Assembly: GCA_963727525.1 (NCBI GenBank)
Contig: CAVSGO010000005.1
Coordinates: forward strand, 448,001-512,000
Source of the DNA: an uncultured bacterium
Lineage (GTDB): Bacteria; Krumholzibacteriota; Krumholzibacteriia; LZORAL124-64-63
DNA length: 64,000 bases
Direction: 5' to 3'
A program made the position numbers and the translations under genes. Every line of letters starts with the position of its first letter. The first letter of the stretch is position 1. Below, piece after piece: positions 16,436 through 64,000 of the stretch. A model generated the notes under the pieces. That model worked only from the letters and a program-made list of their open reading frames with translations. It had not been told where the DNA came from and ran no database searches.

Positions 16436-16539
16436 GATGCCTCCGTGGAAATCCCCGACTCGGCGGGGGTCGACGCAGGTCCGGACGCCGCCGTTCCTGC
16501 GGTCACTCGAGTGATGGTGGCGTCGCCATGAACCCTGGC

Positions 16540-16568
16540 ACGCTAGCATCGACGCCAACCCCTGTCAA
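16540..16568 (-). promoter_or_regulatory. Sigma70-type promoter for the M16 operon
   Basis: Minus strand TTGACA-N17-TAGCGT with extended TGn; the -35 overlaps the mpg stop codon. Confidence 0.6.
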
Positions 16569-17206: not shown

Positions 17207-18075
17207 CAGCCCCCCTGCCTGTCCAGCTCGCGCCGGCGCAGCAGCACCACGCCGAGGAACGTCGCCACCATCACGACGATGATGAGCACGACCCCCGACT
17301 GCCACGCGGGCATCGGCTGCCGCGCGAGGGCACGGTTGAGCAGGTCCTCGATGACGCCGCGAAGATCCTGCGCCGGCAGATCGGGCCAGTCGATGAGGTT
17401 GCGCAGGTGGAACCGGATGGTCCATTCCTGGATGCGCTGCGGGATCCCGCTGACCAGTGTTTCCCAGCCGAAGACGAAGAGGATCGCGACGAGCAGCGGG
17501 CGCTTCAGCCACGTGCCCACACACGCGAAGATCGCCGTGTACACCGCCGCGCCGAGCAGCACGACCACGGCCGCCATGAGGTAGAGCTTGATGAACGCGA
17601 GCGTCACCGCGCCGAAGCCGCCCAGCATGAGCATCACGAAGCACGTGGCCAGGGCCAGCACGAGCAGCCCGCCGGCCACCGCCTGCGCGGCGAGCAGCCG
17701 CCCCAGGTACAGGGCGCTCCGGCGGATGGGACGCGTCCAGTAGTAGACGAGCGTGCCGTCCTCGATGGGCTCACCGATCGCCGACGTGCCCACCGCCATC
17801 GCCACGACCGGGATGAGGAACGGGATGAGCAGGTTGCCGACGAGCATCGCCAGCAGGGACTCGGGCGCCAGCGCGACCGGCAGCCACAGCCGCGCGGCCA
17901 GAAGCAGGGCCACCGGCACCAGCATGAGCAGGGACAGCGACACCAGCCGGCGCCGGCGCGCCATCTCGCGCACGGCATAGAAGGCGATGATGGCGATGGC
18001 CGGCAAGCTTGGCATCGCCGCCGGCGCGGCCGGCGCGGTGGCGTTGCGGGGGGAGGTGTCGGACGCGATCGTCAT
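17206..18075 (-). CDS. ABC-2 type transporter permease
   Basis: Multiple transmembrane segments; EPIEDGTLVYYWTRPIRR motif. Confidence 0.85.
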   Translation of the reverse strand: MTIASDTSPRNATAPAAPAAMPSLPAIAIIAFYAVREMARRRRLVSLSLLMLVPVALLLAARLWLPVALAPESLLAMLVGNLLIPFLIPVVAMAVGTSAIGEPIEDGTLVYYWTRPIRRSALYLGRLLAAQAVAGGLLVLALATCFVMLMLGGFGAVTLAFIKLYLMAAVVVLLGAAVYTAIFACVGTWLKRPLLVAILFVFGWETLVSGIPQRIQEWTIRFHLRNLIDWPDLPAQDLRGVIEDLLNRALARQPMPAWQSGVVLIIVVMVATFLGVVLLRRRELDRQGG

Positions 18076-18082
18076 GCGGGCC

Positions 18083-19018
18083 TCAGCTCTCCGTCAGATA
18101 GGCGAACACGGATTCCAGGTCGTCGTCGAGCGTATGGATCTCCTCGATCGGCAGTCTCGCATCCAGCAGCCACTGCGGCAGGTGCCGGTAGAAGTCGAGA
18201 GCATGGTCGGTGCGTACCACCAGCCGGCCATCGCCAGTCAGCTCGGTGCCCACCACGTGGTCCTGGCGCGCCAGGTACGCCGCGAGATCGCGCAGGCGTG
18301 GCGAGCGCAGGGCCACCACCGTGGGATGCTCGGGGATGAGATCGCGGATCTCGGCAACGTCGCCCTCGGCCAGCACCTTGCCACGGTGGATGAGCACCAC
18401 GTTGCGCGTCATCTCCTCGACCTCCGGCAGGATGTGGCTGGAGACCAGCACCGTCTTGCCCGCCTGGCCGAGTTCCTGGATGAGCTGGATCGTCTGATGG
18501 CGGCTCACGGGATCCATGCCGTTGAGCGGCTCGTCCATGAAGAGGATGTCGGGATCGTGCGCGAGGGCCTGGGCGAGCTTCAGTTTCTGGCGCATGCCCT
18601 TGGAGTAGCCGCCGAGCTGCCGCCGTGCGGCATCGGTGAGCTCGAAGCGATCGAGCAGTTCCTGCGCGCGCCGCGCGGCCAGCGCCGCGGTGAAGCCATG
18701 CAACCGCAGCATGAGGTTGAGAAACTCGCGCCCGGTCATCCAGCCGGGCAGCGCGTCGCTCTCGGGGCAGAAGCCGATGCGGCGATACAGGCCGATGTGG
18801 CTGCGCAGCGGCTGGCCCTCGAGGTGCACGTCGCCGTGGCTCGGCGTGATGAGGCCGGCCATCAGCTTGAAGAGCGTCGTCTTGCCCGCGCCATTCTGCC
18901 CGAGCAGACCGATCACGCCCCCGCCGACGGACAAGGTGCAGCTGTTCACGGCCACGACCTCGCCGAACCACTTGCCGACGCGGTTGGCGGACAGGCGCGC
19001 CTGGCCCGCGCCGATCAT
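18083..19018 (-). CDS. ABC transporter ATP-binding protein
   Basis: GQNGAGKTT, YSKGMRQK, MDEP, SSH. Start at ATG 19018. Confidence 0.92.
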   Translation of the reverse strand: MIGAGQARLSANRVGKWFGEVVAVNSCTLSVGGGVIGLLGQNGAGKTTLFKLMAGLITPSHGDVHLEGQPLRSHIGLYRRIGFCPESDALPGWMTGREFLNLMLRLHGFTAALAARRAQELLDRFELTDAARRQLGGYSKGMRQKLKLAQALAHDPDILFMDEPLNGMDPVSRHQTIQLIQELGQAGKTVLVSSHILPEVEEMTRNVVLIHRGKVLAEGDVAEIRDLIPEHPTVVALRSPRLRDLAAYLARQDHVVGTELTGDGRLVVRTDHALDFYRHLPQWLLDARLPIEEIHTLDDDLESVFAYLTES

Positions 19019-19872
19019 ACCACCACCTCCACCGGCCGGATCTGCTTGCGCAGCACGAGGATCGCCCCGCCGGCCCAGAGCAGGCACACGCCCAGACTCA
19101 CCCACGGCGACACGTCCAGCCGCGGCGGCGCCGCGAAGAGCAGCGTGCCCGCGTTGTGGAACTGACCGCCGAAGTTGACGATCTGCATCGACTTCACGCC
19201 GACGAGCGAGAAGAGATTGCCCACGGCCTCGCTGCCCATGTAGAGCACCGTCCACCACACGACGATGAAGATCGTGCGCTTGCCCAGCGACGAGAACGCG
19301 AGCAGGACGAGGCTCACGATCACCCCGCTGGCGAGGCAGTAGACGAGCAGGCGTAACGGCGTGAGCAGCAGCACCTGCACGCCCGTGGCCGTGGGGTCGA
19401 CCAGATAGGCGAAGATGCAAAGAACCCAGGCGGGCACGAGAGTGACCGCGAGGTACCAGCCGAGGATGACCAGCCCCTTGCCGGCCACGTACGAGCTCAC
19501 ACCGAGCGGACGGGAGAAGTAGAGCGACAGCCCGTTCTCGCGCCGGTCGCGCGCGATGAGGCTGGCGCCGACGAGGGCCGTGAAGAGGAACACGAAGAAA
19601 CGCTGGCTCTCCACGTAGCTGAGGAATCCGCCCGGCGCGATGCTCGTCCACGCGCTGCCGGCGGCGAGGTCGAGGATCTGTCCTGCCTTGGCCTTGAAAT
19701 AGATGATGCCGCCCTTGACGATGGCCGGGATCCAGGACATGAACACGAGGAAGAGAAACGCCCGGCGTTGCAGCGGCGCCACGAGGCCGCGCCGCGCGAT
19801 GGCCCACCAGGGGGGATCGGCGGCGAGGCCAGACGGTGTCCAGTGCGTGTATCCGCGTTCGTAGACGGGCAT
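19015..19872 (-). CDS. ABC-2 type transporter permease
   Basis: MPVYERGY start, IARDRRENGLSLYFSRP motif, multiple transmembrane segments. Confidence 0.85.
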   Translation of the reverse strand: MPVYERGYTHWTPSGLAADPPWWAIARRGLVAPLQRRAFLFLVFMSWIPAIVKGGIIYFKAKAGQILDLAAGSAWTSIAPGGFLSYVESQRFFVFLFTALVGASLIARDRRENGLSLYFSRPLGVSSYVAGKGLVILGWYLAVTLVPAWVLCIFAYLVDPTATGVQVLLLTPLRLLVYCLASGVIVSLVLLAFSSLGKRTIFIVVWWTVLYMGSEAVGNLFSLVGVKSMQIVNFGGQFHNAGTLLFAAPPRLDVSPWVSLGVCLLWAGGAILVLRKQIRPVEVVV

Positions 19873-50966: not shown

Positions 50967-53807
50967 TTACTTCTGCACCATGAGTTGCCGCGTGACGACC
51001 CGCCGCCCGGCTCCCTGTCCCACCACCATCCGCGCCACGTACACTCCGCTGGCCACCGTCGCGCCATGCGCGTCGCGGCCGTCCCAGGCCACCGCGTGGT
51101 CGCCGGCCGCGAAGTCCTGTCGGCCGAAGTCGCGCACCCGCCGGCCGCGGATGTCGTAGACCGCCAGCGCCACCGATTCGCCCGCCGGCAGCGAGAATCC
51201 GAATGTCGTGCGGCCAGGGGCCGGGTTGGGGAACGCGCCCCGGAAACTCACACGCGTCTGGCTCACCTGCGGCTGCGGATCCTCGACACCCGTTGCTTGG
51301 GCCGGTACGCCCTCGGTGCAGCCCGTGCGCGCCAGGTCGTGGCCAGCCATCGCCCAGCGGCGCGTCGCGCCCGCGAGTGCGTCGGTGCCGGTGCCGCAGA
51401 CGTAAAGGAAGCGGCCGACGGTGATCACGAGATCGGCGATGCCGTCGTTCTCGATGTCGGTCACCACGGCGCTCTGCGCCGTCTCGAGGTCGAACAGGTT
51501 CGGCCAGTCGGCCGGGATCGTCGCCTGCGCCGCCCACTCGTGCAACCAGCCGCCCGTGGTACCGACCAGGAGCTGGGGACGGTCGATACCGGGACGCGCG
51601 ACGCGCCCGATGATCGGTTCGGTGCTCGCGTTGTCGGCGGGCCCGACGGTCACCGGATATCCGGCGAGCAACGTCCCGTCGACATTGACCGCAAACACAC
51701 TGCCCGACCGCGTGCTGAAGCAGAGCACCGGGTCGGTAGCGTTTTCCACGCCGGCCACTGTCACGCCCAGGATGGGCGAGCCCGTGCCGGTGTTGTAGGG
51801 CCAGGCCCCGTTCACGGCGCTGCCGTCGCGATTCAACAGCTGCACGCGGCCCGTGCTCATCGGCACCGCGATCTCGAGGTTGCCATCGCCGTCGAGATCG
51901 CTGAGCGTGACGCCGCCCGACGGCGCCGCGCCGGAGCCGAGCAGGAAGTCGTGCACCGAGCCGTCGGACTCGATGATCGCCACGCCCGTGTTGAGGGCGG
52001 CGACGACCTCCGGCGCACCGTCGCCGTTGAGGTCGCCGATCGCGGCGCGGCCCAGCACCTGCGCGCCCGGGAACGTGACGGGCCAGCCGGGGCGCTCGTT
52101 GCCGGCGCTGTTGAGCAGGTGCACCTGGTTACCGCTGGCCGCGACGATCTCGCCGGCATAGAACCCGGTGATCGGCCCGACGCTCACGTAGGTGTCGCTA
52201 CCGGTCCCGAGGTCCCGAGGAAACGACGGCAGGGGCACGAGAGCCGAATCGAGAGCATGGACCCGGCCGTTCGTGTCGCCGACGACGACCTCTCGCACGC
52301 CGTCGCTGTCCAGGTCGAAGAGAACGGGCAGCGAGCAGTCGCCCGCCGCGCCCATCCCGTAGCTTGCCACCGTGCCCGCACCCAGCGCGTAACGCCGCAC
52401 GAAGCCGTCGCTGTCCACGGCGACGACGTCCTTCACGCCATCGTCGTCGAGGTCGGCCACGCCAGGCGCGGACACGTAGTGGGTGGTGTTGCCGCCGAGG
52501 GTGAAGAAGCCACCGTCCTTGGCCACCGCGAACCCAGGCGAGGTGCGCCACGCGGCGTTGAAGAGTAGCGGCGCCTCATCGTGGGCATCGACTTGCATCA
52601 CCGCAGCGATGGCCGTCTGGTTGCCCTGCGAGGGATCGAGCGCCAGTGCGGCCGGCTGCGTCAGGAGGTGGCCGTTGGCCAGGTACTGCGCGGTCTCGTA
52701 GGTCCCCAGCGGGCCGCTGTCCGGACGCAGCACGTAGTATCCCGCATAGTCGCACATGGTGCCCATGACGCCGTACGCCGTCCAGAACAGCCGCAGGTGG
52801 TTGCGGATCGTCGGGCCCTCGAGCGTGGCCGGCGACCAGGTCGCTCCTCCATCGAGCGAGCCCACGACCGTGGCGCCGAGATTGGGCGAGGAGTCCTTGT
52901 GGTAACCGATCACGACGTCGTCCCCGTGCTGGTCGCTGGCCAGCGACAGACCGGAATAGCCCCATGTCGTGTCCGCAACCACCAGCGTGGCCGGCGCGGG
53001 CCAGTCGGCCAGAGTGATACCGTTGCTGGTCGCGCGGGCGAAGTTGATCTGCATCAGGTCATTGCCGCAGTCGAGGACCGTGCGCAGGCCCGCCAGGTTG
53101 ACGGTGGCGCCGCCACCGAAGCCGAGGCTGAGCGCCATGGTTCTCGTGATGCCGGACGCGAGGGGCGGAAAGTCGTAGATGACGACGGGCGCGGTGAACA
53201 CGGTCGCGGCGTCCTCGGAAAGGCTGTAACGCAGCTCCCAGTCCTCGATATCCGTCTCGACGGCGTACGCCACCGCGACGTCGATGTACTGCGTGGCCGA
53301 CGTGCGCAGCGCCACCGTCAGACCATCGACACGCGGCAACACACCGGGCACGTCGGGGAAAGTGTCGACGACGGTCTGCGTCCAGAAGGGCGTGGGCAGA
53401 TCTACCTGGGACCGCCACACCCAGATCGTCCCGTCGCCCGCATCCGCGTAGAAGCTGAGGAATACCCACTCGTCGAACAGCCCGCTGGAGATTTGCAGGC
53501 GCGCGTCCTTGTACTCCGTGCCGGGCGCGCTGACGACGTCCCACGTCATCCAGGTGGCGCCATGGTCGTCGCTGCGCAGGATGACGAGTTCGCTGGTGTC
53601 GAGGTCGATCTCGCGATTGACGAGGGTGTAGATCTTGCCGGTGGAACTGATGGCCAGGCTCGGCTCCGTGCCGTCGATCTGGTGTCCATCGTACGGGTAG
53701 TAGACGAACTTGCCGGGATTGCCACCTAAAACGGTGGCCCGGGCGGCGGGCAGCATCCCGAGCACCGAGGTGGCGACGACGACGAGTATGATCAATGCCT
53801 TGCGCAT
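50967..53807 (-). CDS. Secreted BNR/FG-GAP repeat protein with FlgD-Ig/CTD-like tail
   Basis: Signal peptide; Asp-boxes SDDHGATW and SLDGGATW; repeated DLDxDG loops; C-terminal FPNP...VYDIRGRRVR...WDGRD...ASGVY. Confidence 0.88.
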   Translation of the reverse strand: MRKALIILVVVATSVLGMLPAARATVLGGNPGKFVYYPYDGHQIDGTEPSLAISSTGKIYTLVNREIDLDTSELVILRSDDHGATWMTWDVVSAPGTEYKDARLQISSGLFDEWVFLSFYADAGDGTIWVWRSQVDLPTPFWTQTVVDTFPDVPGVLPRVDGLTVALRTSATQYIDVAVAYAVETDIEDWELRYSLSEDAATVFTAPVVIYDFPPLASGITRTMALSLGFGGGATVNLAGLRTVLDCGNDLMQINFARATSNGITLADWPAPATLVVADTTWGYSGLSLASDQHGDDVVIGYHKDSSPNLGATVVGSLDGGATWSPATLEGPTIRNHLRLFWTAYGVMGTMCDYAGYYVLRPDSGPLGTYETAQYLANGHLLTQPAALALDPSQGNQTAIAAVMQVDAHDEAPLLFNAAWRTSPGFAVAKDGGFFTLGGNTTHYVSAPGVADLDDDGVKDVVAVDSDGFVRRYALGAGTVASYGMGAAGDCSLPVLFDLDSDGVREVVVGDTNGRVHALDSALVPLPSFPRDLGTGSDTYVSVGPITGFYAGEIVAASGNQVHLLNSAGNERPGWPVTFPGAQVLGRAAIGDLNGDGAPEVVAALNTGVAIIESDGSVHDFLLGSGAAPSGGVTLSDLDGDGNLEIAVPMSTGRVQLLNRDGSAVNGAWPYNTGTGSPILGVTVAGVENATDPVLCFSTRSGSVFAVNVDGTLLAGYPVTVGPADNASTEPIIGRVARPGIDRPQLLVGTTGGWLHEWAAQATIPADWPNLFDLETAQSAVVTDIENDGIADLVITVGRFLYVCGTGTDALAGATRRWAMAGHDLARTGCTEGVPAQATGVEDPQPQVSQTRVSFRGAFPNPAPGRTTFGFSLPAGESVALAVYDIRGRRVRDFGRQDFAAGDHAVAWDGRDAHGATVASGVYVARMVVGQGAGRRVVTRQLMVQK

Positions 53808-53951: not shown

Positions 53952-55181
53952 CTAGTGGTCGTACGCCCCCGCGGTGGCGAGGACCTGCGCCAACTCCTCG
54001 ACGACCTTCTCCTTCTCGCCCCCGTCGTCTTTCACGCCGAGGTCGTCCTTGCCCCACTTCTCCTGCGGGAAGGGTCCGAGGGCCTCGAGTTCGTCCCAGT
54101 CGGCGGCACCGGTCTCCTTCTGGAAGACCAGGTTCTCCTGGCGGCAGTCGACGGTGATGAGGTCACCCTTGCGGATCTGGTCGCTGCAGATCAGGTTGCT
54201 GATGTTGGTCACCACTTCCTTCTCCACGAGCCGCTTCAGCGGGCGTGCGCCGTACTGCACGTCGGTGCCCTTCTCGACCAGGTAGGCCTTTGCCGAGGGC
54301 GTGATCTCCAGCAGGAAGGGCTCGGCGCAACGCAGACTGCGGTGGTGGATCTGCGTGAGCAGGATGTCGAGGATCTGGAAGAGGTGAGGCCGCTTCAACG
54401 TGTCGAACGTAACGATGTCGTCGAAGCGGTTGAGGAACTCGAAGGGGAACACCTTCTTGGCCTCGCGCATGGCGGCTTCGGCAACGTCGCGGTCGAGGGC
54501 GGCGTCAGCCGCGCCGGTACTGAAGCCGATGTGATTCTGGGCCAGGTGCGCGCCCATGGCCTCGCTGCCCACGTTGGTGGTGAGGATGATGATCGACTGC
54601 CGGAAATCGACCTCTTCGTTGTTGCCCAGCACCACGGTGCCGTCCTCGAGGATGCCCAGCAGGAGATTCCACAGCTTGGGGTGCGCCTTCTCTATCTCAT
54701 CGAAGAGCACGATGGAAAGGTTGCGCTCGCTCTCGGGCGGGAAGAGCCGCGTGAGGCGGCCGCCCGGCTCGGTGATCAGGCCGCACTGGTTCTCGATGGC
54801 GCGGCGATGATGCCGGTCGATGTTCTCCTGCGCGAGCAACGGACGGATCTCGCCGCCCACGTAGCCGGGAGGCGAGCCGAGCAGCTTGCTGATGTTGTAG
54901 TGCGCGGAGTACTCCTGGCAGTTCACGCGCGTGAAAGCGCGCTTGCTGCCGAAGACAGTCTCGGCCAGGGCGCGGACGGTCTCGGTCTTGCCGACGCCGG
55001 TGGGCCCCATGAACATCATCGTCAACAGCGGACTCTCAGGATCGTGGATCCCGGCGATGAGCCGGCTGAAGCTGTCGGCGATCTTGTCGATGGCCGTGGG
55101 CTGGCCCACCACCATCTTGCGCATGCGGTTGGCGAAGCGATCGAGCTGGGTGTTGGTCTTGTCCAGGCTTAGCGTTTTCAC
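53952..55181 (-). CDS. Clp/Hsp100-like AAA+ ATPase with only the D2 module
   Basis: VVGQ, GPTGVGKTE, LLGSPPGYVG, LFDEIEKAHP, TTNVG, HIGF, EFLNRFD, YGARPLKR; GTG start. Confidence 0.88.
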   Translation of the reverse strand: MKTLSLDKTNTQLDRFANRMRKMVVGQPTAIDKIADSFSRLIAGIHDPESPLLTMMFMGPTGVGKTETVRALAETVFGSKRAFTRVNCQEYSAHYNISKLLGSPPGYVGGEIRPLLAQENIDRHHRRAIENQCGLITEPGGRLTRLFPPESERNLSIVLFDEIEKAHPKLWNLLLGILEDGTVVLGNNEEVDFRQSIIILTTNVGSEAMGAHLAQNHIGFSTGAADAALDRDVAEAAMREAKKVFPFEFLNRFDDIVTFDTLKRPHLFQILDILLTQIHHRSLRCAEPFLLEITPSAKAYLVEKGTDVQYGARPLKRLVEKEVVTNISNLICSDQIRKGDLITVDCRQENLVFQKETGAADWDELEALGPFPQEKWGKDDLGVKDDGGEKEKVVEELAQVLATAGAYDH

Positions 55182-55468
55182 GACGTGACCTCGTGCCGTT
55201 CGCGTTCCTGCGTTCCTGATGGGACATCCCTGTCCCTGCGGCAACGGTGGGTTCCGGGGCGCGAGTAGCGGCTCCACCGTCGGGTTCTAGATCGGCCCGC
55301 GACAAGACGTCTTGAGTGCCAAAGTTTTGAGCTGTTGTCAGTTACCGGCGCGCGCGGGGGCCAGGTAATTGATGTTTCATCATCGCCTGGCGCGTCGCCG
55401 AGGTAGGGGCGGCATTGCTGGTCGGCCGCCTTGATGCGCTTGCCGTGCTCTCGGGATTCGCCCCCCGG

Positions 55469-57211
55469 TCACGGCAGGTATGGCACCGCCAGGTACGGCG
55501 CCTGAGCCTGGCCCACGTGCTCGGCCCACCGTCCATCGCTGATCGGCGCCACGGGGCTATGGACCTGGAAATACCGCTCCACCGCCTCTGCCGTACGCAC
55601 CTGGGTGGGGGTCACGTCGGCGGGCGGGACCTTGGTGAGCATGTCGAGGCCGCTGTTGCCCTCGAGCAGGAAGTTCGTACACACGGCGGTGTAGGTGGCG
55701 TCGGGATCCCACGGCTTGCCGCCGACGGTGAGCGCGACGAGGCGATCCCAGTCTGGGCGCGAGGAGTCGTACACGACGGTGACGCCCGAGACGCAGAGAC
55801 CGCTGACATCGCCGCGCAGCTTGGCCTCGATCACACTGCGCAGCAGGCGGCCGTTCATCTGCACCACCACCAGTTCGTTGCCGAAGGGCAACACGCCGAA
55901 GATGTCGCCGGCAGTGATGGGGCCAGGCGGCAGATCGGCACGCAGACCGCCGAGATTCTGGAAGGCGAAGTCGGCATCGAAATAGGCACGCATGGCGTCG
56001 GTGACGAGGTTGCCCACCTGGTTCGAGCCGGCGCCACCGCGGGACATCGCCGCCGTGGTCTTGCCGATCTCGGCATTCATCTCCGCATTCGCGCGGTCGA
56101 GGTAGGGCTGGAGCAGGTTCGTGGTCGTCGAGTCGGGCCACAGCTCGTCCTGAAACAGCGTGACCAGCGTGCCGCTGTCGTGGGCCGGTTCGTAGCCCAC
56201 GAGCGTCTTCGTCTGCGGATCGATCAGCAGGATCACGTGGCCCACGCTCGACCCGTTGCCGAACGTTTCGAAGCACATCGTGTGATTCACGGGATCGATC
56301 CAGGGCTTCTGATAGCCGCGGTGAGTGTGGCCACCCACGGCGATGTCGATGCCCGGCACGGTGTTCACGAGTTCCATCAGGTTCATGCCGCCGTACGAGG
56401 TATTGCTGCCGTAGGTCTGCGACGCCTGGCTCTGATTCTCGGCTCCCGCCTCGCTATCGACGATTTCCGCATCCTGCTTCCCGACGATCTTCTCCCAGCC
56501 TTTCTTCGGGTCATAGGGCAGCCCCTCGTGGATCGCGAGCATGATCAGGTCCGCACCCTGTGCGCGCAGCTCGTCGCGATATTTCGCCACGACGGGCGGC
56601 ATGGGCAGAAACGTCAGACCGACGATGTTCTCGGGAAAGCTCATCTTCGCGGTCGCCGGCGTGATGATGCCGATGACGCCGATCTTGATGCCTGCCTTCT
56701 CCACCATGAGCGTGGGCCGGCACCAGTCCACGACCTTGCCGGTGTCCGTGGAGACGAGATTGGCGGCGAGCCACGGAAAGTGCGACTGGCGGGCCAGGGC
56801 CTCGTTCACGTCGCGGCCGAGGTCGAAGTCGTGGTTGCCTGGGACTGCGAAGTCGTACCCGATGCTGTTGTAGTAGTCGATGACGGCGCGGCCCTTGGTC
56901 TTGTTGCCGATGGGCGTGCCCTGGAACATGTCGCCCACGTCCACCAGCAGCACCGGTTGGCCGGCCTGCGCGGCCTCGTCGCGGACCTCGTGGATGTAGG
57001 TGGCCGCCGAGGCGGCGCCGCCGAGCGGTGGTGGGAACGCGGGGTTCATGAAGCGCGCGGGCTCGGGCGCGATGTGGCCGTGGACATCGTTGGTCCACAG
57101 CAACTGCAGATGGATGAGGGCATCGTCGGCCGGCTTCGCCGACGCCGCGCTGGCAAACGCCAGGAGCAACAGGCCGCACCCGAGAACGACGGTGGTCTTG
57201 CGCATGGTCAT
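55469..57211 (-). CDS. Secreted bifunctional 5'-nucleotidase/UDP-sugar hydrolase family metallophosphoesterase
   Basis: Signal peptide; NDVHG, DVGD, GNHDFD, IHEG, GGHTH; C-terminal NLGGLR, LPFGN, FLLEG. Confidence 0.92.
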   Translation of the reverse strand: MTMRKTTVVLGCGLLLLAFASAASAKPADDALIHLQLLWTNDVHGHIAPEPARFMNPAFPPPLGGAASAATYIHEVRDEAAQAGQPVLLVDVGDMFQGTPIGNKTKGRAVIDYYNSIGYDFAVPGNHDFDLGRDVNEALARQSHFPWLAANLVSTDTGKVVDWCRPTLMVEKAGIKIGVIGIITPATAKMSFPENIVGLTFLPMPPVVAKYRDELRAQGADLIMLAIHEGLPYDPKKGWEKIVGKQDAEIVDSEAGAENQSQASQTYGSNTSYGGMNLMELVNTVPGIDIAVGGHTHRGYQKPWIDPVNHTMCFETFGNGSSVGHVILLIDPQTKTLVGYEPAHDSGTLVTLFQDELWPDSTTTNLLQPYLDRANAEMNAEIGKTTAAMSRGGAGSNQVGNLVTDAMRAYFDADFAFQNLGGLRADLPPGPITAGDIFGVLPFGNELVVVQMNGRLLRSVIEAKLRGDVSGLCVSGVTVVYDSSRPDWDRLVALTVGGKPWDPDATYTAVCTNFLLEGNSGLDMLTKVPPADVTPTQVRTAEAVERYFQVHSPVAPISDGRWAEHVGQAQAPYLAVPYLP

Positions 57212-57227
57212 GTCCCTCTCTCGACCG

Positions 57228-58559
57228 CTAGAAATCGCGCGAGAATCCCAGACCCACCCGGAATCGCGTATCCTCGACCCGTGCCTCGGGATCGGTGGTG
57301 AACCCGGCGGGGTACGCGAAGATATGCGGCTGGATCGACTGCAGCTTGCTCAGCTCCACCGATGCCAGCAACGCGCCCCCGGCCACCGGCATGCCCGCAC
57401 CCGCGGTGAACACCACGGTGCCGGCGTCGCGGTCCGCATAGCTATCGTAGTGGCGGAATCCGAACATCGCCCGCATGCCGTTGTAGAAGGTGTGTTGAAC
57501 GCCGAGCCGCACGTCGAAAACGTCCTGCAACTCGCCCGGGTTCCCGCTCATCGTGCTGCCGAGGGCGGCCCGCGGGCCCTCCAGCTTGCTCCACTGGCAA
57601 TACAGGAGTTCGGCCGAGACGATCGTGCGCGGGTCGTTGCGCGGATAGAGCGTGAAGCCGGCGCGATACTGGCCCGGGTAACGGACGCTCGCGGAGCCGC
57701 TCGTGGTCGTGGTCACGTACGCCGTGTCGACGGCCGACCAGCCGTACGTGTCGATCGCGCGATCGCCGTCCACCTTCAGCGGCAGGTCGTAGGCCAGCCC
57801 GACGTCCACGCGTTCGCTGACGTGCACGCGCCCGCCGAACGTGGCGTTGACGCCCGAGAGGTCCCAGCGGTCGGTGATCTCGAAGCTCTGCGTGACGTCC
57901 TGGGTATAGCGATCCGAAACGTAGGTATCGCGCGAGCCGAACGCATAGTGCAGCGTGGCGCCGACGGAGATCGCCGACGTGACCGCGGCGGCGGCGCCCA
58001 GGCCCAGGTCATGCAAGGTGCCGACCACCTTGTAGGTGCGGTTCTGCAGCACCGCGTCGCGGTTGTTGTACGGGTCGGGGCTGCGCAGCTCCTCGTCGAA
58101 CACGTAACCGAACTCGTTGCGGTCGGCGAGGGCGAGCCCGATAGCGACCGGGACGTTCCCCAGCCGCAGCCCGCGCGCCGCACTCAGTCCGCCCGGGAAG
58201 TGATCGTGGCGGTTGCTCGCGATCACCGTGTCGGTGACGTAGTTCTCGAAGGTGTCGAAGAGCGGCTGGAAGCGGTCCTCGTCGGCATGGTCGACCGCGG
58301 CCGCGAGATCGACGCGCCAGTACCCGGCATCGATGAGGAACGCCGGATTGAAGAGGCCGGACAGACCGCCCCTGTACATGGCCACCCCGGTCCCACCCAT
58401 CGCGTTGACATCGGCCGCCAGATACGGATTCTGGCCCCCATAGGTCGACTCGATCTGCGGAACCGCCACCGCCGTGCCCGCGAGGGCGAGCACGCCGGCC
58501 ACCGCCAGCGTCCGCAGCGCGTGTCCGGAGATCACCTCGGTCAAATGTCGCGTGCACAT
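57228..58559 (-). CDS. Outer-membrane beta-barrel (FadL/PorV-like)
   Basis: Signal peptide; NAMGGTGVA...LFNPA N-terminal plug motif; amphipathic strands; ends GFSRDF. Confidence 0.75.
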   Translation of the reverse strand: MCTRHLTEVISGHALRTLAVAGVLALAGTAVAVPQIESTYGGQNPYLAADVNAMGGTGVAMYRGGLSGLFNPAFLIDAGYWRVDLAAAVDHADEDRFQPLFDTFENYVTDTVIASNRHDHFPGGLSAARGLRLGNVPVAIGLALADRNEFGYVFDEELRSPDPYNNRDAVLQNRTYKVVGTLHDLGLGAAAAVTSAISVGATLHYAFGSRDTYVSDRYTQDVTQSFEITDRWDLSGVNATFGGRVHVSERVDVGLAYDLPLKVDGDRAIDTYGWSAVDTAYVTTTTSGSASVRYPGQYRAGFTLYPRNDPRTIVSAELLYCQWSKLEGPRAALGSTMSGNPGELQDVFDVRLGVQHTFYNGMRAMFGFRHYDSYADRDAGTVVFTAGAGMPVAGGALLASVELSKLQSIQPHIFAYPAGFTTDPEARVEDTRFRVGLGFSRDF

Positions 58560-58592
58560 CGCTTCGATTCTCCTTTTGCGGGGCAATCCCGC

Positions 58593-61133
58593 CTAGAAGC
58601 TGTAGTCCAGCTGCAGACGGACCGACAGCTCGTCTCGCGGCACGTAGGTCGACGCCAGTTCGTCGGTCGTGTTGCCGTATGACCGCCGATCGAGATAGGT
58701 CTTGGGCAGGTTGTGATCCCGCGTGACCTTGAGCTGGCAGAGCAGTCGCTGGGAGACGCGGCTCTCCACCTTGAACCAGTTGCGGAAGCCCGAGCCGTCG
58801 AGCAGCACAAACTCGTTGCCCTCGAAATTCCACAGGAAACCGTCGTAGATCGACGTGGCGAACTGCAGTGTGATGCCCGGCGTGAGATTGTGCTCGTAGC
58901 GCGCCTCGAACGCGTGCGCCGGCCCCGCCGCCAGACCGACGCCGCTCCAGCCCGTACCGGGAGGGGCCGGGTAGGTCAGACGCGGCCGCGGCGGAAACTG
59001 CACGTTGCTCGTCATGTACGTGAACTGCAGCCGGTTGTAGTTGCTCAGCAGGGCGATGAGCTGCCAGCGCGTCTCCCAGTTGCGATAGGTGCGCACGTCG
59101 GTGGGCCAGGCCTCGGTACGGCTGCTGTAGCGTTGCCGCAGCCGTAACCGCAGGTTGAAGATCGGCTGGTACTCGGCCTTGATGGTGTAGCGCTGCAGGT
59201 CGGCGCCGTCGGCCTTGCGCTGCCACTGGTCGTATTCCAGGCCCGTGAGATTCAGCGTGCGGCTGATCCGGTAGTTCATGCTGAGGAAGAGCCCCTTCTC
59301 TGCCTTTGGCTGGGGCGATTCCGTCACGAGCCACGAGTATAGATCGTCCTGCAGGCGGAACGGCGAATCGAGCAGCGTCTGCTCGTACTTGCTGTCGTTG
59401 CTGAACGAGCGCTGGTACGGATTGTCGAAGTCGAGATCGTAGTCGCGGTAGATCGCGAGCAGATTGAGATTCTCCCACTGGGTGTAGGCGTTCACCAGCC
59501 AGGCCTTGGGATTGTCCCCACTGAAGAGACCGCGCCGCGGATCTTGCAGCCAGGCGTACTCGCCCTGTACGGCCACGTTGCGATAGACGGTCTGGAAGTC
59601 CGTGCCGAAGACCCGGCGAAACTTGTACTCGCGCCGCACGCCTGCGGCCTGATCGTCGAAGACGCTGCGATAGCCGGCGAACACCTCGGAATCGCGGGCC
59701 GTGATCAGATCCTCGATCGTGGTGATGGAATAGTCGTAGAGGGTGTGCGGATCGGGATCGAAGGCCCTGTTGTACCGCGCCGAGTAGCCGCTCACGCCCA
59801 CGAACGTGCCGGGCGCCACCGTGACGTGCACGGCGCCGCCGAACATGTCCTCTTGCAGGGCATCGCGCGCCAGACCCGTGGGGTCGCCTGCCGTGGTGAG
59901 GTGCTGGTCGAGATACGCCGTCGACGGGCGCGGGACCATGGCCACGTAGCGATTGACGGTGCCGTCGTCATTGAGGATGACGTCCTTACGGTCGGTCGAC
60001 CCGAAGAGCGCGATGTTGACGGGTCCCACCGTGCCTTCGAAGGCCGCGCCGTTGAGTGCGTACTCGCGAGTGCGGCTCAGATCGCCGCGCACGCCCAGCG
60101 GCCGCTTGTTCCAGCCGTAGCCGGTCTGCCGGAAATGGATGAAGTCGGTGTTATCCATCACCAGGCCCTGGCCGAACGCGACGCGGAAGTTGCCCAGTAC
60201 CCCGCGCTTGAGATGGAACGGTCCCAGGTCCTTGTTGCTGACGCCGAGGTAGAGCTTGGCCGTCTCGTCCCACGTACTCTCGCCAACGTTGCGGTGGGTC
60301 GTGGCCCCCACCCGGACACCGTGCGTGAGGTTGAGCCGCATCTTCTGCGTCATCGCCGGATCCATGACCCGCGTGTCGCCGGTCGCGAAATGCGTGTCGA
60401 AGCTCGGCCCCCAGATGAGGGAGAGATTCGCCAGGGATTCGTCGTCGCCGCTGGCGTAGGGCGTGTCGTAGTACCGCAGCGTGTACTGGCCGCGCACCTT
60501 GTCCACGCCGAGGTCTTCTGGACTGTACACGACGAAGTCGCGCAGGTTGCGATAGGCCCAGTAGCGCATGCCCTCGGCGCGCCGGAGCTGGTACGCGTTC
60601 TCGAACCCGCCGAGCTGGTCACGCGCCCCCAGGATGCTGGTGGCGTCGACCGGTGAGACGTTCTGGAACGACATCAGGTCGAAGAGGTCGAGATCGTTCA
60701 CGTTCACGGGATCGAGCAGCATGTCGAAGTACTCGTCGGCGAGACCCTCGCTCGATCCTTCCTGCCCGAGATAGCGGCGGGCCTGACGGTAGCTCTGCGT
60801 GAGCCGCTGGATGGCCTCGTCCGGCGGCGGCGGCGGCAACGTTTCCACGAGCGGCTTCAGCACCGCCAGGATGCCGGGCGTCACGCCGGGCACCTCGAGG
60901 AGATCGTAGACACTGCTGAAATAGCGATCGTAGGTGCGGTAATCGTGGATCGCGCGCGCCACGTCCGGCGGGATGGGCAAGGCGAGCATCTGCTCGAGGG
61001 TGGCGCGGTTGAGATCCAGTTTCGCGACCGGATCGGCGTGCGCCGGCGCCGCAGCGAGACCGCCGAGCCACAGCGTGGCGCCCACGAGCGCCAGCGCGAC
61101 CAGGAGCTCTCGGGTCTTCCGCTCGTGCCTCAC
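58593..61133 (-). CDS. Helix-hairpin-helix (ComEA-like) domains fused to a beta-barrel
   Basis: Signal peptide; LDLNRATLEQM...FSSVYDLLEVPGV and VNVNDLD...GGFENAYQL; GNFRVAFGQGLV; C-terminal QLDYSF beta-signal. Confidence 0.82.
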   Translation of the reverse strand: MRHERKTRELLVALALVGATLWLGGLAAAPAHADPVAKLDLNRATLEQMLALPIPPDVARAIHDYRTYDRYFSSVYDLLEVPGVTPGILAVLKPLVETLPPPPPDEAIQRLTQSYRQARRYLGQEGSSEGLADEYFDMLLDPVNVNDLDLFDLMSFQNVSPVDATSILGARDQLGGFENAYQLRRAEGMRYWAYRNLRDFVVYSPEDLGVDKVRGQYTLRYYDTPYASGDDESLANLSLIWGPSFDTHFATGDTRVMDPAMTQKMRLNLTHGVRVGATTHRNVGESTWDETAKLYLGVSNKDLGPFHLKRGVLGNFRVAFGQGLVMDNTDFIHFRQTGYGWNKRPLGVRGDLSRTREYALNGAAFEGTVGPVNIALFGSTDRKDVILNDDGTVNRYVAMVPRPSTAYLDQHLTTAGDPTGLARDALQEDMFGGAVHVTVAPGTFVGVSGYSARYNRAFDPDPHTLYDYSITTIEDLITARDSEVFAGYRSVFDDQAAGVRREYKFRRVFGTDFQTVYRNVAVQGEYAWLQDPRRGLFSGDNPKAWLVNAYTQWENLNLLAIYRDYDLDFDNPYQRSFSNDSKYEQTLLDSPFRLQDDLYSWLVTESPQPKAEKGLFLSMNYRISRTLNLTGLEYDQWQRKADGADLQRYTIKAEYQPIFNLRLRLRQRYSSRTEAWPTDVRTYRNWETRWQLIALLSNYNRLQFTYMTSNVQFPPRPRLTYPAPPGTGWSGVGLAAGPAHAFEARYEHNLTPGITLQFATSIYDGFLWNFEGNEFVLLDGSGFRNWFKVESRVSQRLLCQLKVTRDHNLPKTYLDRRSYGNTTDELASTYVPRDELSVRLQLDYSF

Positions 61134-62053
61134 TTCGCCTCACCACCCCACACGAAGGTGAGTCCGAACTGGTGGGTCGAGTCAAGCACGCCACCGCCCG
61201 TCGAGAAGCCGTACTGCACGGCCACACCGTGCACAGTATAGCCGAAGCCCGCCGTGAGCTTGCCGGGATTGGTCACCACGCCGCCGCGCAGGACGAAGCC
61301 GTCCACCACGCTGAACTCGATGCCGCCCCGGTACTGGACCTCATGATCGAGATGGTTGGCCACCTCGAAGGAAGTGATCACGCCGGTGTAGGGCTCGTAG
61401 GCCACGCCGCCCTTGACGAGCTGCGGCAGCTCCTCCTGATCGATACCGATGTTGGGCTGGTTCAGGTTGTGCACCAGGAAGCCCAGATGGGTGCGCTCGT
61501 GCAGGGTCACGGCCATGCCCACATCCACCCCGACGCTGCTGTCGTTGCCGGGATCGGTGCTCCCGGCGAACTCGTTGTCCCAATCGCCGACCGTGTCGGC
61601 GAACTTCAGGTGGAAGACGTTCAGGGAACCGCCCAACGTGATCGTGGAATGCATGTCGTCGTAGAGCACCACGCCGTAGCCGGCCGACAGCGTGAGCTCG
61701 GTCATCAGGTCCACCGCGCCCTGAGTCACGGAGAACCGACGCATGCCCACACCCACGGCGCCGGCCTTGCCAGGCAGCGGGATCGCCGCCCCGATGAAGG
61801 CCTGGCGCGCGAAGGCGAGGCCATAGGGTTGGACGTAGGTCGCCGCCAGGGTGGGTCGGTCGGCCCGCGCGAGGAACGCCGGGTTCGTGGCGACGGCGAA
61901 GGGCGCGTCGGCCACGGCCACGCTCGCCTCCCCCATGCCCCGCGCGCGCGGATCGATCGTCACGTCCTCGAACGCCGCGCGCGCCGCCAGCGGCGCCAGC
62001 AGCACGAGGGCGAGAATGAGGCGGCTGACCAGGATTCTCGGTGTGCGCGTCAT
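61130..62053 (-). CDS. PorV/PorQ-like outer-membrane barrel
   Basis: Signal peptide; RARGMGEASVA...NPAFL; DVG; NLNQP; LRGG; HQFGLTF. Confidence 0.78.
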   Translation of the reverse strand: MTRTPRILVSRLILALVLLAPLAARAAFEDVTIDPRARGMGEASVAVADAPFAVATNPAFLARADRPTLAATYVQPYGLAFARQAFIGAAIPLPGKAGAVGVGMRRFSVTQGAVDLMTELTLSAGYGVVLYDDMHSTITLGGSLNVFHLKFADTVGDWDNEFAGSTDPGNDSSVGVDVGMAVTLHERTHLGFLVHNLNQPNIGIDQEELPQLVKGGVAYEPYTGVITSFEVANHLDHEVQYRGGIEFSVVDGFVLRGGVVTNPGKLTAGFGYTVHGVAVQYGFSTGGGVLDSTHQFGLTFVWGGEAK

Positions 62054-62064
62054 CGCTTCCTCTC

Positions 62065-64000
62065 CTACTTCAGCCGCGTGGCCACGACCACGGGTACGGT
62101 TTTCGTTTCCTCGTCACCGGTCGTCTCGTCGACCACCGACAGATGGGCCACGTACACGCCCGCTCGCACGAGCTCGTAATCCTGGTCGCGACCATCCCAG
62201 ACGACCACCTTGTGCAGGTTGGTTGGAACGGCATCGAAATGGCTATCGAAGAGCGTGACCACGAGCCGCCCATCGAGATCGTAGAGCCGCAGACGGGTCT
62301 CGCTGTTCTCCCGGGTCCCAAACGTGATGGGGAACGTCTCGCCCAGACGCGGCAAGAACGTCCGCGACGGCACCGAGAGCGCGACACCCTCGCCCACCGC
62401 GGGCTCCCCACCGCCACCGTTGCCCCCGCCGGTCGGCGGATCCGGCGTGGCGGTTTCCGCTGCGAAGGTGACGCTCCAGTTCTCGCTCAGCTCGTCGCGC
62501 CCATCGACGCCGTTGCTCCCGGTTGCGATCTGTTCACCCTCGTTCATGTCGATGCGGGTGTACGACTCGCCAACCGCATGTGCGAACATGATCGTGTCCT
62601 GATTGGCCGGCGCCGTGTCGGGCGCGTAGGACGTGGGAGTCGTGTCCGGATCGATGCCGTCGATGCTCACACCGGTCTTCGAGAAGCGGTAGGAGCTGCC
62701 GTTGCCCCAGATCACGATGTCGATATCGGTGACGAGATCGGAGAGCTGGTCCCAGTAATAGAGGATGACCAGCTCGCCATTGCCGGTATCGACGTTGAAA
62801 TTCGTCAGATCGCCGTACTGGCTCAGCACGTTGCTGCCGTCGAAGACCGGGACCATGTCGGGTACATCGTCGGGCACGGCGCCGTCCTCGAACATCTCGA
62901 AATCCGGCAAGACGCCGAACTGTCCCTCGAAGCCGTCACTGCCGCCGAGCGACACGGTCACCCGATCGCCGGCCGCCACGACCGCATCGGCCGGGAAGCG
63001 GATGTGGAAATCGCCGAACGTGCCGTCGCCGCCGACGTTGTCGGCAGTGGGGTTGCCCTCGACAACGCGCCAGTAATATTCCGAGCTCGGCGCATAGAGC
63101 GCGTCGGTCAGGTAATAGTTGGCCAGCGACACGTCAAAGTCGTTGGGATTGTCGATCTCGACGAACTCGCCGGGCGTGGGCGTGGTGCACACCTCGGTGA
63201 AGAGCAGCTTGGCCGGCCCCTCGCCCTGCTGGGGCGCCTCGATCACACCGAAGGTGTTCGCGTGGGCGAAACCTCCCATGGGCACGGTCGCGGTGGCCCC
63301 CTCGGTGGTGGCCGCCGTCACGTACCAGGCGACGGTGTCTTCCACCGCGAGCCCCTCGATCGCGGCCGTCCAGGCGCTCGCCGCGCCGGAGGTGCCGGGG
63401 AGCGTCTGCTCGTCGCCGCCGTTGACGGCGTAGTGGAACGTCACCGCCGCCAGCGCGTCATGGCTGAGCACCGTGGCCGCGAGGGTGACCGGCAAGCCGG
63501 CGTAGGCGGGACTCGAGGCAGTGGCCGCGGTGACGATCGGCGCCGTGCGATACCAGGTCTCCGGTGCGGCCGCCGGCTCCTGCGTCGACACGTCGTGCCA
63601 GCTCGCCGCAAGATTCTCGCTCGTCTCGTCGTGTCCCGTGAGGCCGTTGCCGCCCGACTCCGCCTCGCCCGTCTCGTCGAAGGAGAGACGCTGCAGGGAG
63701 TGGCCAAAGGTGGGCGCGGCGGCCAGGGCAGGGTGCTGCGACGCCACCGGGGTATCGTCCAGGTACGTGCTCGAAGCCTGGTCGACATCGACACCGTCGA
63801 TGGCCACGCCCGTCTTGTCCACGCGCACGCGCGTGTCGCTGCCATAGACGAGATAGTCGAGGTCCTGGACGAGATCCGTCGCACCGTCCCAGCGATACAT
63901 GACGATGCTGTCGAACGTATCGCTCAGCCTGGGCACGTTCGAGCCCGAGCTGCCGAGGCCCGCGCCGATGGACCCCGGGGCCACGGCGCGCATCTCCGGT
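62065..64000 (-). CDS. Lamin-tail-domain repeat surface protein with FlgD-Ig/CTD-like tail (5' end outside window)
   Basis: LLFTEV...EFVEIDNPNDFDVSLANYYLTD; internal duplication; C-terminal LRLYDLDGRLV...WDGRD...AGVY. Confidence 0.82.
   Translation of the reverse strand, partial: PEMRAVAPGSIGAGLGSSGSNVPRLSDTFDSIVMYRWDGATDLVQDLDYLVYGSDTRVRVDKTGVAIDGVDVDQASSTYLDDTPVASQHPALAAAPTFGHSLQRLSFDETGEAESGGNGLTGHDETSENLAASWHDVSTQEPAAAPETWYRTAPIVTAATASSPAYAGLPVTLAATVLSHDALAAVTFHYAVNGGDEQTLPGTSGAASAWTAAIEGLAVEDTVAWYVTAATTEGATATVPMGGFAHANTFGVIEAPQQGEGPAKLLFTEVCTTPTPGEFVEIDNPNDFDVSLANYYLTDALYAPSSEYYWRVVEGNPTADNVGGDGTFGDFHIRFPADAVVAAGDRVTVSLGGSDGFEGQFGVLPDFEMFEDGAVPDDVPDMVPVFDGSNVLSQYGDLTNFNVDTGNGELVILYYWDQLSDLVTDIDIVIWGNGSSYRFSKTGVSIDGIDPDTTPTSYAPDTAPANQDTIMFAHAVGESYTRIDMNEGEQIATGSNGVDGRDELSENWSVTFAAETATPDPPTGGGNGGGGEPAVGEGVALSVPSRTFLPRLGETFPITFGTRENSETRLRLYDLDGRLVVTLFDSHFDAVPTNLHKVVVWDGRDQDYELVRAGVYVAHLSVVDETTGDEETKTVPVVVATRLK

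Follow-up and report, generated by a model that had tools for sequence, protein, structure and literature searches.

This study deals with a cluster of five genes at the end of a 64,000-nucleotide stretch of DNA from an uncultured bacterium of the phylum Krumholzibacteriota. The whole stretch, called the window below, corresponds to positions 448001-512000 of one contig of the source genome (G000:C5:448001-512000), whose assembly comprises 4.66 Mb and is 96.7% complete; the G+C content in the window is about 0.65-0.69. From position 55469 to the end of the window, five open reading frames (ORFs) follow each other head to tail, all on the minus strand. Their products include a protein with lamin-tail domains (LTDs) and a C-terminal domain (CTD) like those of the T9SS (type IX secretion system), and a fusion of helix-hairpin-helix (HhH) domains to a large beta-barrel. 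The genes and the domains of their products are as follows:

55469-57211, minus strand: 5'-nucleotidase of the UshA type, 580 aa
57228-58586, minus strand: FadL/BamG-like barrel, 452 aa when read from a TTG start
58593-61133, minus strand: HhH-barrel fusion, 846 aa
58596..60494, minus strand: large beta-barrel domain of the fusion, assigned to no Pfam/NCBIfam family
60531..60710, minus strand: HhH_3 domain 2 of the fusion (QNVSPVDA...EGMR), 30.1 bits, mildly basic across the family
60852..61022, minus strand: HhH_3 domain 1 of the fusion, 34.4 bits, ComEA-like fold, hairpins LP-IPPD and PGVTPG
61130-62053, minus strand: PorV/PorQ/PorP-like barrel, 307 aa
62065..64000, minus strand: 3' 1.9 kb of the gene for the LTD-CTD surface protein, which continues beyond the window
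62068..62397, minus strand: CTD of this protein, FlgD-Ig-type and T9SS-like, 110 residues, ending in ...PVVVATRLK

Read from the nucleotidase to the LTD gene, the spacings amount to 16, 6, -4 and 11 bp. The negative value stands for a GTGA overlap, which joins the start of the HhH-barrel gene to the stop of the PorV/Q-like gene and can be read directly in the sequence. As judged by reading the translations, the N-termini of all five products are signal-peptide-like. The initial description of the locus as five co-directional, tightly packed genes for exported proteins, which came from a sequence-only reading of the window, was thus borne out. The FadL-like gene has an alternative in-frame ATG at 58559, 27 nt downstream of the TTG. 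The LTD gene was completed from the flanking genome sequence beyond the window. The complete ORF encodes 826 aa and reaches the window-equivalent position 64545; the likely start is an ATG at 64455, 30 codons into the ORF and preceded by GGAGAG, which yields a protein of 796 aa with a signal peptide. A scan of positions 55000-64000 for promoters and terminators, which is uninformative for this phylum, returned no promoter-like site and one terminator-like site that is intragenic, with no excess over shuffled sequences.

The order of the five genes is identical in 17 of 17 loci from the genomes of relatives. By itself, this order says little because the flanking genes (sulfatase, PtsN, HslU and RsgA) are also conserved within the family. 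A wider sample was provided by the best 80 of 459 loci that were found in contigs from one genome per species, and each neighbour was counted where the contig reaches far enough. The HhH-barrel gene is adjoined by the PorV-like gene in 73 of 73 loci and by the FadL-like gene in 67 of 67, and the nucleotidase gene lies within 5.3 kb in all 51 countable cases. Furthermore, 67 of 68 loci have, upstream of the PorV-like gene and at most 600 bp away from it, a gene with the conserved CTD at its end; in the remaining locus, no more than 526 bp of sequence are available there. The gene for HslU comes next in 42 of 51 loci. The nine loci without HslU are distant ones (37-46% barrel identity), which include records labelled Eisenbacteria and Gemmatimonadota and which keep the core among other neighbours; the sequence of a tenth distant locus, which carries the label Zixiibacteriota, does not extend as far as the nucleotidase. 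Since the same order recurs in 17/17 and 80/80 related loci, the arrangement is far beyond chance.

Among 151 genomes of Krumholzibacteriota, the barrel (E <1e-40) and the FadL-like gene (E <=1e-40) were both found in 71 genomes, G000 included, and neither of them in 79. The two genes are thus present or absent together in 150 of 151 cases, and the sole discordant genome, which contains the FadL-like gene only, is fragmented and 89% complete. The carriers belong to three of the nine families sampled (f1, f6 and one genome of f2), and neither gene was found in the 69 genomes of the six other families that were searched. In two other phyla, which were reached via the distant loci, the barrel is present in 7/7 and 31/31 genomes, respectively. 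These data show that the five genes are inherited as one unit, well past the synteny of close relatives, and in this respect support the sequence-only reading.

The complete LTD protein is composed of a signal peptide, a first LTD unit, an immunoglobulin (Ig)-like module, a second LTD unit, a glycine-rich linker and the CTD. The LTD was detected in two stretches of the full-length protein with 47.4 bits (Pfam cut-off 34.3; E 2.7e-12), while the partial copy in the window scores 23 bits by itself. The Ig-like module gives a weak match to CBM_56 in Pfam. A model of the protein that was computed from 25 orthologues is all-beta (pLDDT 79.9), and its fold matches are Ig arrays of the adhesin, complement macroglobulin, S-layer and PorU type. 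Upstream of the PorV-like gene, 28 further passenger genes were scanned, of which 24 encode an LTD and four only Big_5; a nuclease domain was found in none of these 28 genes. LTD passengers also occur in the distant loci L094, L097 and L099.

The CTD shows a mean column identity of 47% over 22 loci, including loci in which a Big_5 passenger takes the place of the LTD. FlgD_ig was recognised in 11 and CHU_C in three of the 22 aligned orthologues. The window's own 110-residue tail matches no Pfam family or curated T9SS model; its match to the PorU tail is weak (E 0.0043), and so is that of the CTD family profile to the PorU CTD (E 0.022). The PorV/Q-like barrel can be aligned over its full length with the PorV_fam model NF033709, to which it scores 64.1 bits (58 bits in the genome search; cut-off 90), and it matches the PorP/SprF model TIGR03519 with 31.3 bits (cut-off 90.55) and Pfam PorP_SprF with an E value of 1.7e-4. 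Among the solved chains, the family profile matched only PorV (6h3i_F, E 2.9e-9). Because the scores stay below the cut-offs, yet the alignment covers the full length and the profile matches PorV only, the protein is, judged by these similarities, a member of the superfamily of the 14-strand type that stands outside the curated PorV and PorP families. The PorV-like and FadL-like barrels of the cluster are homologous to each other (hhalign probability 98.5%).

A model of the complex between the CTD and the PorV-like barrel reached an ipSAE of 0.91 as compared to 0.00 for the best control; values at this level are attained by 116 of 157 solved complexes and by two of 215 mismatched pairs. The runs share at least 98% of the contacts, the pLDDT of the partners is at least 89 and the interface takes in the C-terminal PVVVATRLK strand. 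The modelling of CTD and barrel, which the sequence-only reading had recommended, thus supports binding. As the CTD is kept while the passengers vary, the genes are adjacent in nearly all loci and the complex is predicted with a high score, the LTD protein would dock on the PorV-like barrel, its presumed anchor or shuttle. PorV-CTD-type complexes have already been solved, so that the score may reflect likeness to these structures.

The cluster does not simply consist of general T9SS components. The genome carries a separate SprA (480 bits), which was also matched in five of five distant genomes, in four of them above the cut-off. It could thus be ruled out that the HhH-barrel is the missing T9SS translocon of the phylum. 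At least seven PorV-family genes above the curated cut-off are encoded elsewhere in the genome (C7:673171, C7:793584, C7:509285, C8:28076, C7:361732, C2:60417 and C7:967258). The PorV-like gene of the cluster could therefore be dismissed as the main PorV of the genome, and the set of paralogues, which is unusually large, suggests many dedicated pairs of cargo and shuttle.

The HhH-barrel protein begins with a signal peptide, which is followed by two HhH_3 domains with a helical linker (residues ~38-202) and by the barrel (residues 214-846), which ends in ...DYSF. The whole protein scores 54.7 bits against HHH_3 (cut-off 27), the single domains contributing 34.4 and 30.1 bits. Domain 1 superposes on ComEA 8dss_B with a Z score of 11.6 and a root-mean-square deviation (rmsd) of 1.2 A over 65 residues; its sequence aligns to ComEA 2duy and 8dss, and the tandem pair aligns to the tandem HhH of EEPD1. 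In a model based on an alignment of 42 sequences (pLDDT 84.7, pTM 0.81), helices extend up to residue 200 and are followed by about 24 long strands, in which short turns alternate with long loops, and by a C-terminal phenylalanine. If the barrel follows the topology that is usual in the outer membrane, the arrangement of strands and loops in the model predicts that the N-terminal HhH domains lie in the periplasm and not at the surface. The most conserved motifs of the barrel, which are rich in arginine and lysine, are located in the long loops L3 and L7.

No Pfam/NCBIfam family was found for the barrel part of about 630 residues. Among 1.84 billion representatives, the barrel family is small and comprises 270 clusters at 50% identity (E <=0.001); full-length members nearly all have 800-860 aa, and the match begins near residue 100. 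A specific structural relative was sought by Foldseek and VIA-align, and both searches returned generic barrel matches only (Foldseek TM score <=0.32), which does not show a new fold. FimD and PapC, which are ushers with 24 strands, gave the longest alignments (365-390 residues, Z 12.5-12.9, Foldseek TM score ~0.3). This similarity is confined to the level of the fold, and the HhH-barrel gave no match to the Pfam Usher domain. A limited set of literature queries uncovered no published description of the HhH-barrel fusion or of the five-gene cluster. In the small phylum around L094, there is a second, shorter barrel paralogue (G159:C104:40736-41533, G162:C62:5392-6171, G163:C72:2268-2849 and G161:C70:1774-2322), whose ORFs encode 667-691 aa, cover only profile positions ~230-540 and apparently are devoid of the HhH part. 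The relative G013 possesses three full-length copies of the HhH-barrel (C5:36443-38977, C117:2-2560 and C90:3333-5909) with 59-62% identity to the query, which reflect either several clusters per genome or a mixed bin.

The FadL-like barrel scores 59.4 bits against the BamG model NF053685 (cut-off 250). Its family profile matched the solved chains of BtBamG (9hiv_F, E 3.9e-20), PgBamG (6.2e-16) and TodX (5.2e-13) and, more weakly, those of TbuX (1.2e-10) and FjBamG (7.6e-9). Based on these similarities, the protein is a FadL-family barrel of the 14-strand type and closest to BamG of Bacteroidota. A locus elsewhere in the genome scores 106.5 bits and is the better BamG candidate; this rules out the cluster gene, its paralogue, as the BamG of this genome.

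In relatives, a lipoprotein gene encoding about 450 aa is located between the FadL-like gene and the nucleotidase gene (8/17 loci from the relatives' genomes and 7/51 loci of the wider sample), whereas four Eisenbacteria-type loci (L098-L101) have it about 9 kb upstream instead. The lipoprotein contains a lipobox, a purple-acid-phosphatase-N-like domain and a metallo-beta-lactamase (MBL) domain with an intact HxHxDH motif. Its best solved or curated relatives are MBL domains of ComEC (9ic4_A, annotated as 'Competence protein', E 1.1e-16; 30bt_A, 3.6e-16; TIGR00361, ~1e-12 to 1e-18), and CbpE/Pce, a phosphorylcholine esterase, follows with weak matches (E 0.002-0.025). Degradation of the non-transforming strand is generally attributed to the MBL domain of ComEC acting as a nuclease. 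The nucleic-acid theme of the sequence-only reading thus gained independent support from the clusters of relatives. By analogy to BamG, which holds BamH, the FadL-like barrel would hold the MBL lipoprotein that is encoded behind it in these relatives.

The nucleotidase matches 5_nucleotid_C (125.7 bits, E 2.3e-36) and Metallophos (38.4 bits, E 2.4e-9), and the metal-binding motifs NDVHGH, GDMFQG, GNHDFD and GGHTH, which were read directly, are intact. With 169.9 bits, it stays far from the cut-off of the UshA equivalog NF007109 (600) and below every other equivalog cut-off. Sequence comparison thus assigns it to the UshA-type family, a match that does not fix its specificity. The protein has a signal peptide of the signal peptidase I (SPI) type and no CTD, and a loose lipobox pattern occurs in six of 58 orthologues at inconsistent positions. 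It is presumably periplasmic because of the SPI-type signal peptide and since both a conserved lipobox and a CTD are missing. In one relative (L048:13847-17125, plus strand), the frame of the nucleotidase comprises 1092 aa and extends into the position of HslU; a gene fusion, a shift of the frame or faulty assembly could account for this.

The clusters of the distant phyla are larger. Besides further LTD-CTD proteins, they encode two permeases of the ATP-binding cassette (ABC) type together with a binding protein that resembles UgpB (118-146 bits as compared to a cut-off of 411). The permease and UgpB-like genes are co-directional with the cluster (L099:1349-4733 and L094:2409-5955, plus strand), and no ATPase was seen. 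In L094 and L099, LTD proteins with FlgD_ig tails and weak matches to an oligonucleotide/oligosaccharide-binding (OB) fold (tRNA_anti-codon) are encoded directly upstream of the PorV-like gene. In this genome, the cluster contains no UgpB-like gene, and the best relatives of such genes are located on another contig. A Na/Ca exchanger gene is found downstream of the cluster in L099 and L096. In L094, the nucleotidase gene is directly followed by a gene for a PorU-like Peptidase_C25 protein of 1208 aa (15682-19308, plus strand), which carries a MAM-like domain and a FlgD_ig/Por_Secre_tail CTD.

With about even confidence, we suggest that the products of the five genes form a single apparatus of the outer membrane and periplasm, by which nucleic acid from outside the cell, or what it is broken down to, is scavenged. 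This role is supported because many relatives add a ComEC-type MBL nuclease lipoprotein to the cluster, and some add OB-fold matches and a UgpB-like ABC transporter. The analysis itself establishes the order of the genes, their co-inheritance, the families and folds and the intact catalytic motifs, together with a model that favours binding of the CTD to its barrel. We infer the substrate, the topology, the passage through the barrel, the binding of DNA by the HhH domains and the joining of the four membrane proteins in a single complex. In such an apparatus, the LTD protein would be exported by the ordinary T9SS of the genome, and its CTD would stay docked on the cognate PorV/PorP-like barrel, so that the protein could serve as a non-catalytic polymer-binding arm at the cell surface. 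The barrel of about 24 strands might be the outer-membrane conduit or hub and is the sole candidate conduit of the cluster. The two ComEA-type HhH domains would hang in the periplasm, where they may receive incoming material or tether a partner, and the BamG-like FadL barrel would be a platform for a lipoprotein, which in many relatives is the ComEC-type MBL nuclease or phosphodiesterase. Finally, the periplasmic nucleotidase would strip phosphate from (deoxy)nucleotides, yielding nucleosides and phosphate for uptake. A bolder version, which we consider improbable, is that the HhH-barrel is a new nucleic-acid translocon that is independent of pili, secretins and TonB: DNA or oligonucleotides would enter the periplasm, where the ComEA-derived domains would hold or ratchet them, while the two FadL-superfamily barrels would dock the T9SS-displayed capture protein and the nuclease lipoprotein beside the pore.

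Several observations weigh against scavenging of nucleic acids. The sequence-only reading had proposed to check whether the displayed protein has a nuclease or OB-fold domain encoded beyond position 64000. The outcome was negative: neither the Pfam scan nor the fold search revealed a nuclease, catalytic or OB domain or fold in the full LTD protein of this genome, which offers only the two LTD units, the weak CBM_56 match and Ig-like folds. As the full gene was scanned, folded and fold-searched and gave Ig-like arrays only, the idea of a hidden domain of this kind was rejected. Moreover, the cluster of this genome contains no nuclease gene, and no stand-alone MBL lipoprotein was found in the genome, in which ComEC itself is the sole relative; it is proposed that the gene has been lost. 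The idea that the HhH part binds DNA at the outer membrane is not supported either. The model would place the domains in the periplasm, and the glycines of the first hairpin (GIG) are absent in 40 of 42 family members, the second hairpin keeping one. Across the family, the mean net charge amounts to -2.5 for domain 1, which is thus acidic, and to +1.8 for domain 2. PsbU is among the weak matches of the HhH region, and PsbU and similar degenerate HhH modules are not known to bind DNA. Enzymes of the UshA type also hydrolyse UDP-sugars and other phosphoesters. Finally, the sampled genomes are kin, which leaves few independent events of gain or loss.

Some of these points have to be weighed together with a different explanation, which we regard as unlikely, namely that the genes encode a complex for envelope architecture or surface display that has no role with nucleic acids. 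The LTD protein would then be an adhesin or an S-layer-like protein, the nucleotidase merely a linked neighbour, and the barrel with its periplasmic HhH domains would tether or organise the outer membrane by protein contacts, like OmpM/SlpA-type barrels with periplasmic N-domains. The all-beta Ig-like array of the LTD protein, which in its fold comes closest to adhesins and S-layer proteins, would fit such a role, as would the degenerate hairpins and the acidic domain 1. The same holds true for the distribution of the cluster, which is universal and single-copy in one phylum (31/31 genomes) and which sits among housekeeping genes (PtsN-like EIIA, HslU and RsgA) in Krumholzibacteriota, including this genome. 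Furthermore, the top structural matches of the HhH-barrel include the outer-membrane attachment porin OmpM1 (Z 14.6) and SlpA of Deinococcus. However, the latter matches represent generic barrel similarity (TM score <=0.26, 232 aligned residues). The nucleotidase is kept in 51/51 loci, also where the flanks differ, and a ComEC-type nuclease lipoprotein has repeatedly been recruited into the cluster. Moreover, searches of nine Krumholzibacteriota families failed to find the cluster in six of them, and it is thus no general requirement of the envelope.

Two further explanations were considered. It is distinctly unlikely that the cluster scavenges phosphate from phosphoesters other than nucleic acids, for instance from nucleotide sugars, glycerophosphodiesters or polymers like teichoic acid. 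In this case, the MBL protein would cleave phosphodiesters in general, and the UshA-like enzyme would be a phosphatase of broad specificity. The UgpB-like binding protein (118-146 bits) and the two permeases of the distant clusters, the weak CbpE/Pce matches of the MBL lipoprotein and the position of the nucleotidase below all equivalog cut-offs (169.9 vs 600 for UshA) are consistent with such substrates, and enzymes of the UshA family are described as broad in specificity (PMC8475336). However, the MBL lipoprotein matches ComEC better than CbpE by about 13 orders of magnitude, the HHH_3, LTD and OB-fold domains go with nucleic acids and not with lipid or teichoic substrates, and the cluster of this genome is devoid of a UgpB-like gene. 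Least of all do we favour a pilus-independent import of DNA across the outer membrane for natural transformation, which appears very improbable. In this case, the barrel would be the pore and the ComEA-like domains a ratchet that hands DNA to ComEC, which is encoded in the genome. A wide barrel with tandem ComEA-type domains on what is predicted to be its periplasmic face would suit this task, and the DNA-utilisation loci of Bacteroidota are reported to be evolutionarily related to the transformation system (PMC12478041). However, the hairpins are degenerate, and an obligatory nucleotidase and a facultative nuclease would destroy DNA and not preserve it. Moreover, a transformation role is unnecessary because the genome already has its own small ComEA-like gene (52.9 bits), ComEC and two secretins.

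If the cluster does scavenge nucleic acid, its closest functional analogue is the DNA-utilisation locus ddbABCDEF of Bacteroidales (PMC12478041), which is built from unrelated parts. The compact locus, the surface proteins that bind or act on DNA, the outer-membrane conduit, the periplasmic hydrolase, the division of labour resembling that of polysaccharide utilisation loci and the link to competence are shared features. However, only the ddb locus has the TonB-dependent transporter DdbC, the DUF5689 surface lipoprotein DdbD and three proven nucleases; a Pfam/NCBIfam scan detected no TonB_dep_Rec, Plug or DUF5689 domain and no secreted nuclease in the five cluster proteins. Here, the HhH-fused barrel of about 24 strands is the candidate conduit, display would be achieved by the T9SS CTD and the PorV-like barrel, and the constant hydrolase is the nucleotidase, with no nuclease in the cluster of this genome. 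With regard to the earlier remark that no characterised system with this architecture was known, the ddb locus as described in that source is a counterpart of the same functional kind, but its parts are different. Both the architecture and the barrel family are undescribed, whereas the component superfamilies and the functional category are known.

The individual parts have relatives as well. PorP/SprF-like barrels are described as being encoded beside the CTD proteins that they carry or anchor (PMC9143113; PMC12618676). As in the T9SS cargo-barrel pairs SprB-SprF, PG1035-PorP, PorU-PorV and PorZ-PorQ, the CTD gene is located just upstream of a gene whose product is a small barrel of the FadL superfamily. 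CTD and barrel are conserved jointly, the model favours their binding and SprA is encoded in the genome. PorU and PorZ remain bound to PorV and PorQ. Unlike in these pairs, the barrel is below the curated cut-offs, the window's CTD goes unrecognised by Pfam and the curated T9SS models, and the two genes belong to a fixed module of five whose other members are not T9SS components. With ComEA, the HhH part shares an HHH_3 score above the cut-off, a nearly identical fold (rmsd 1.2-1.7 A, 34-38% identity) and the predicted periplasmic location. Unlike ComEA, it consists of tandem domains, to which an outer-membrane barrel is fused. All but two of the 42 family members have other sequences in place of the GIG hairpins, domain 1 carries an acidic net charge and the score against TIGR01259, the curated model for ComEA, is 34.4 bits only (cut-off 152.35).

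The lipidated N-terminus of the surface lipoprotein BamH is reported to be held by BamG, and a BamG2-BamH2 operon exists (PMC12578637; PMC12611786). BamG proteins are the closest solved relatives of the FadL-like barrel, and in relatives a lipoprotein gene follows as in BamG2-BamH2. Here, the partner is an MBL hydrolase and not BamH, it is missing in this genome and no link to BamA was seen. Furthermore, DNA-degradation loci of Ca. Izemoplasmatales, which are described as DNA-foraging uncultured bacteria, encode nucleotidases, transporters and a large LTD-containing nucleic-acid-binding protein (PMC8289736). The co-localisation of a nucleotidase and an LTD protein is also found in our cluster. 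However, the Izemoplasmatales loci belong to wall-less, monoderm-type hosts, contain several bona fide extracellular nucleases and have no outer-membrane components.

Outside the cluster, a PTS-EIIA (PtsN-like) gene is the upstream neighbour on the same strand. Downstream of the nucleotidase gene, after about 190 bp, there is an HslU-like AAA+ gene (53952-55277, minus strand), which is followed by the gene for an FG-GAP protein and by that for RsgA. The PtsN-like (in L003, 12567-13085, minus strand) and HslU-like genes bracket the cluster in most of the Krumholzibacteria loci examined. The FG-GAP repeat protein, encoded two genes downstream (50967-53807, minus strand), comprises 946 aa and has a FlgD_ig C-terminal tail, which makes it another likely T9SS cargo. 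When one CTD was used as a tblastn query, over 50 tails resembling it were detected throughout the genome.

Extracellular DNA is a major pool of phosphorus and nitrogen in soils, sediments and sludge, and the TonB-dependent ddb system of gut Bacteroidales is the only characterised outer-membrane route for its use in the Fibrobacteres-Chlorobi-Bacteroidetes (FCB) group. If the scavenging reading is true, the five-gene module would be a second, structurally unrelated solution, which is present throughout two sampled uncultured phyla and in three families of Krumholzibacteriota. It would provide a testable case for the re-use of competence domains (ComEA and the MBL domain of ComEC) in nutrition. 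Moreover, it would offer a testable case for FadL-type barrels as docking platforms outside the machinery for beta-barrel assembly (BAM) and the T9SS, alongside a large barrel family of which no member has been described.

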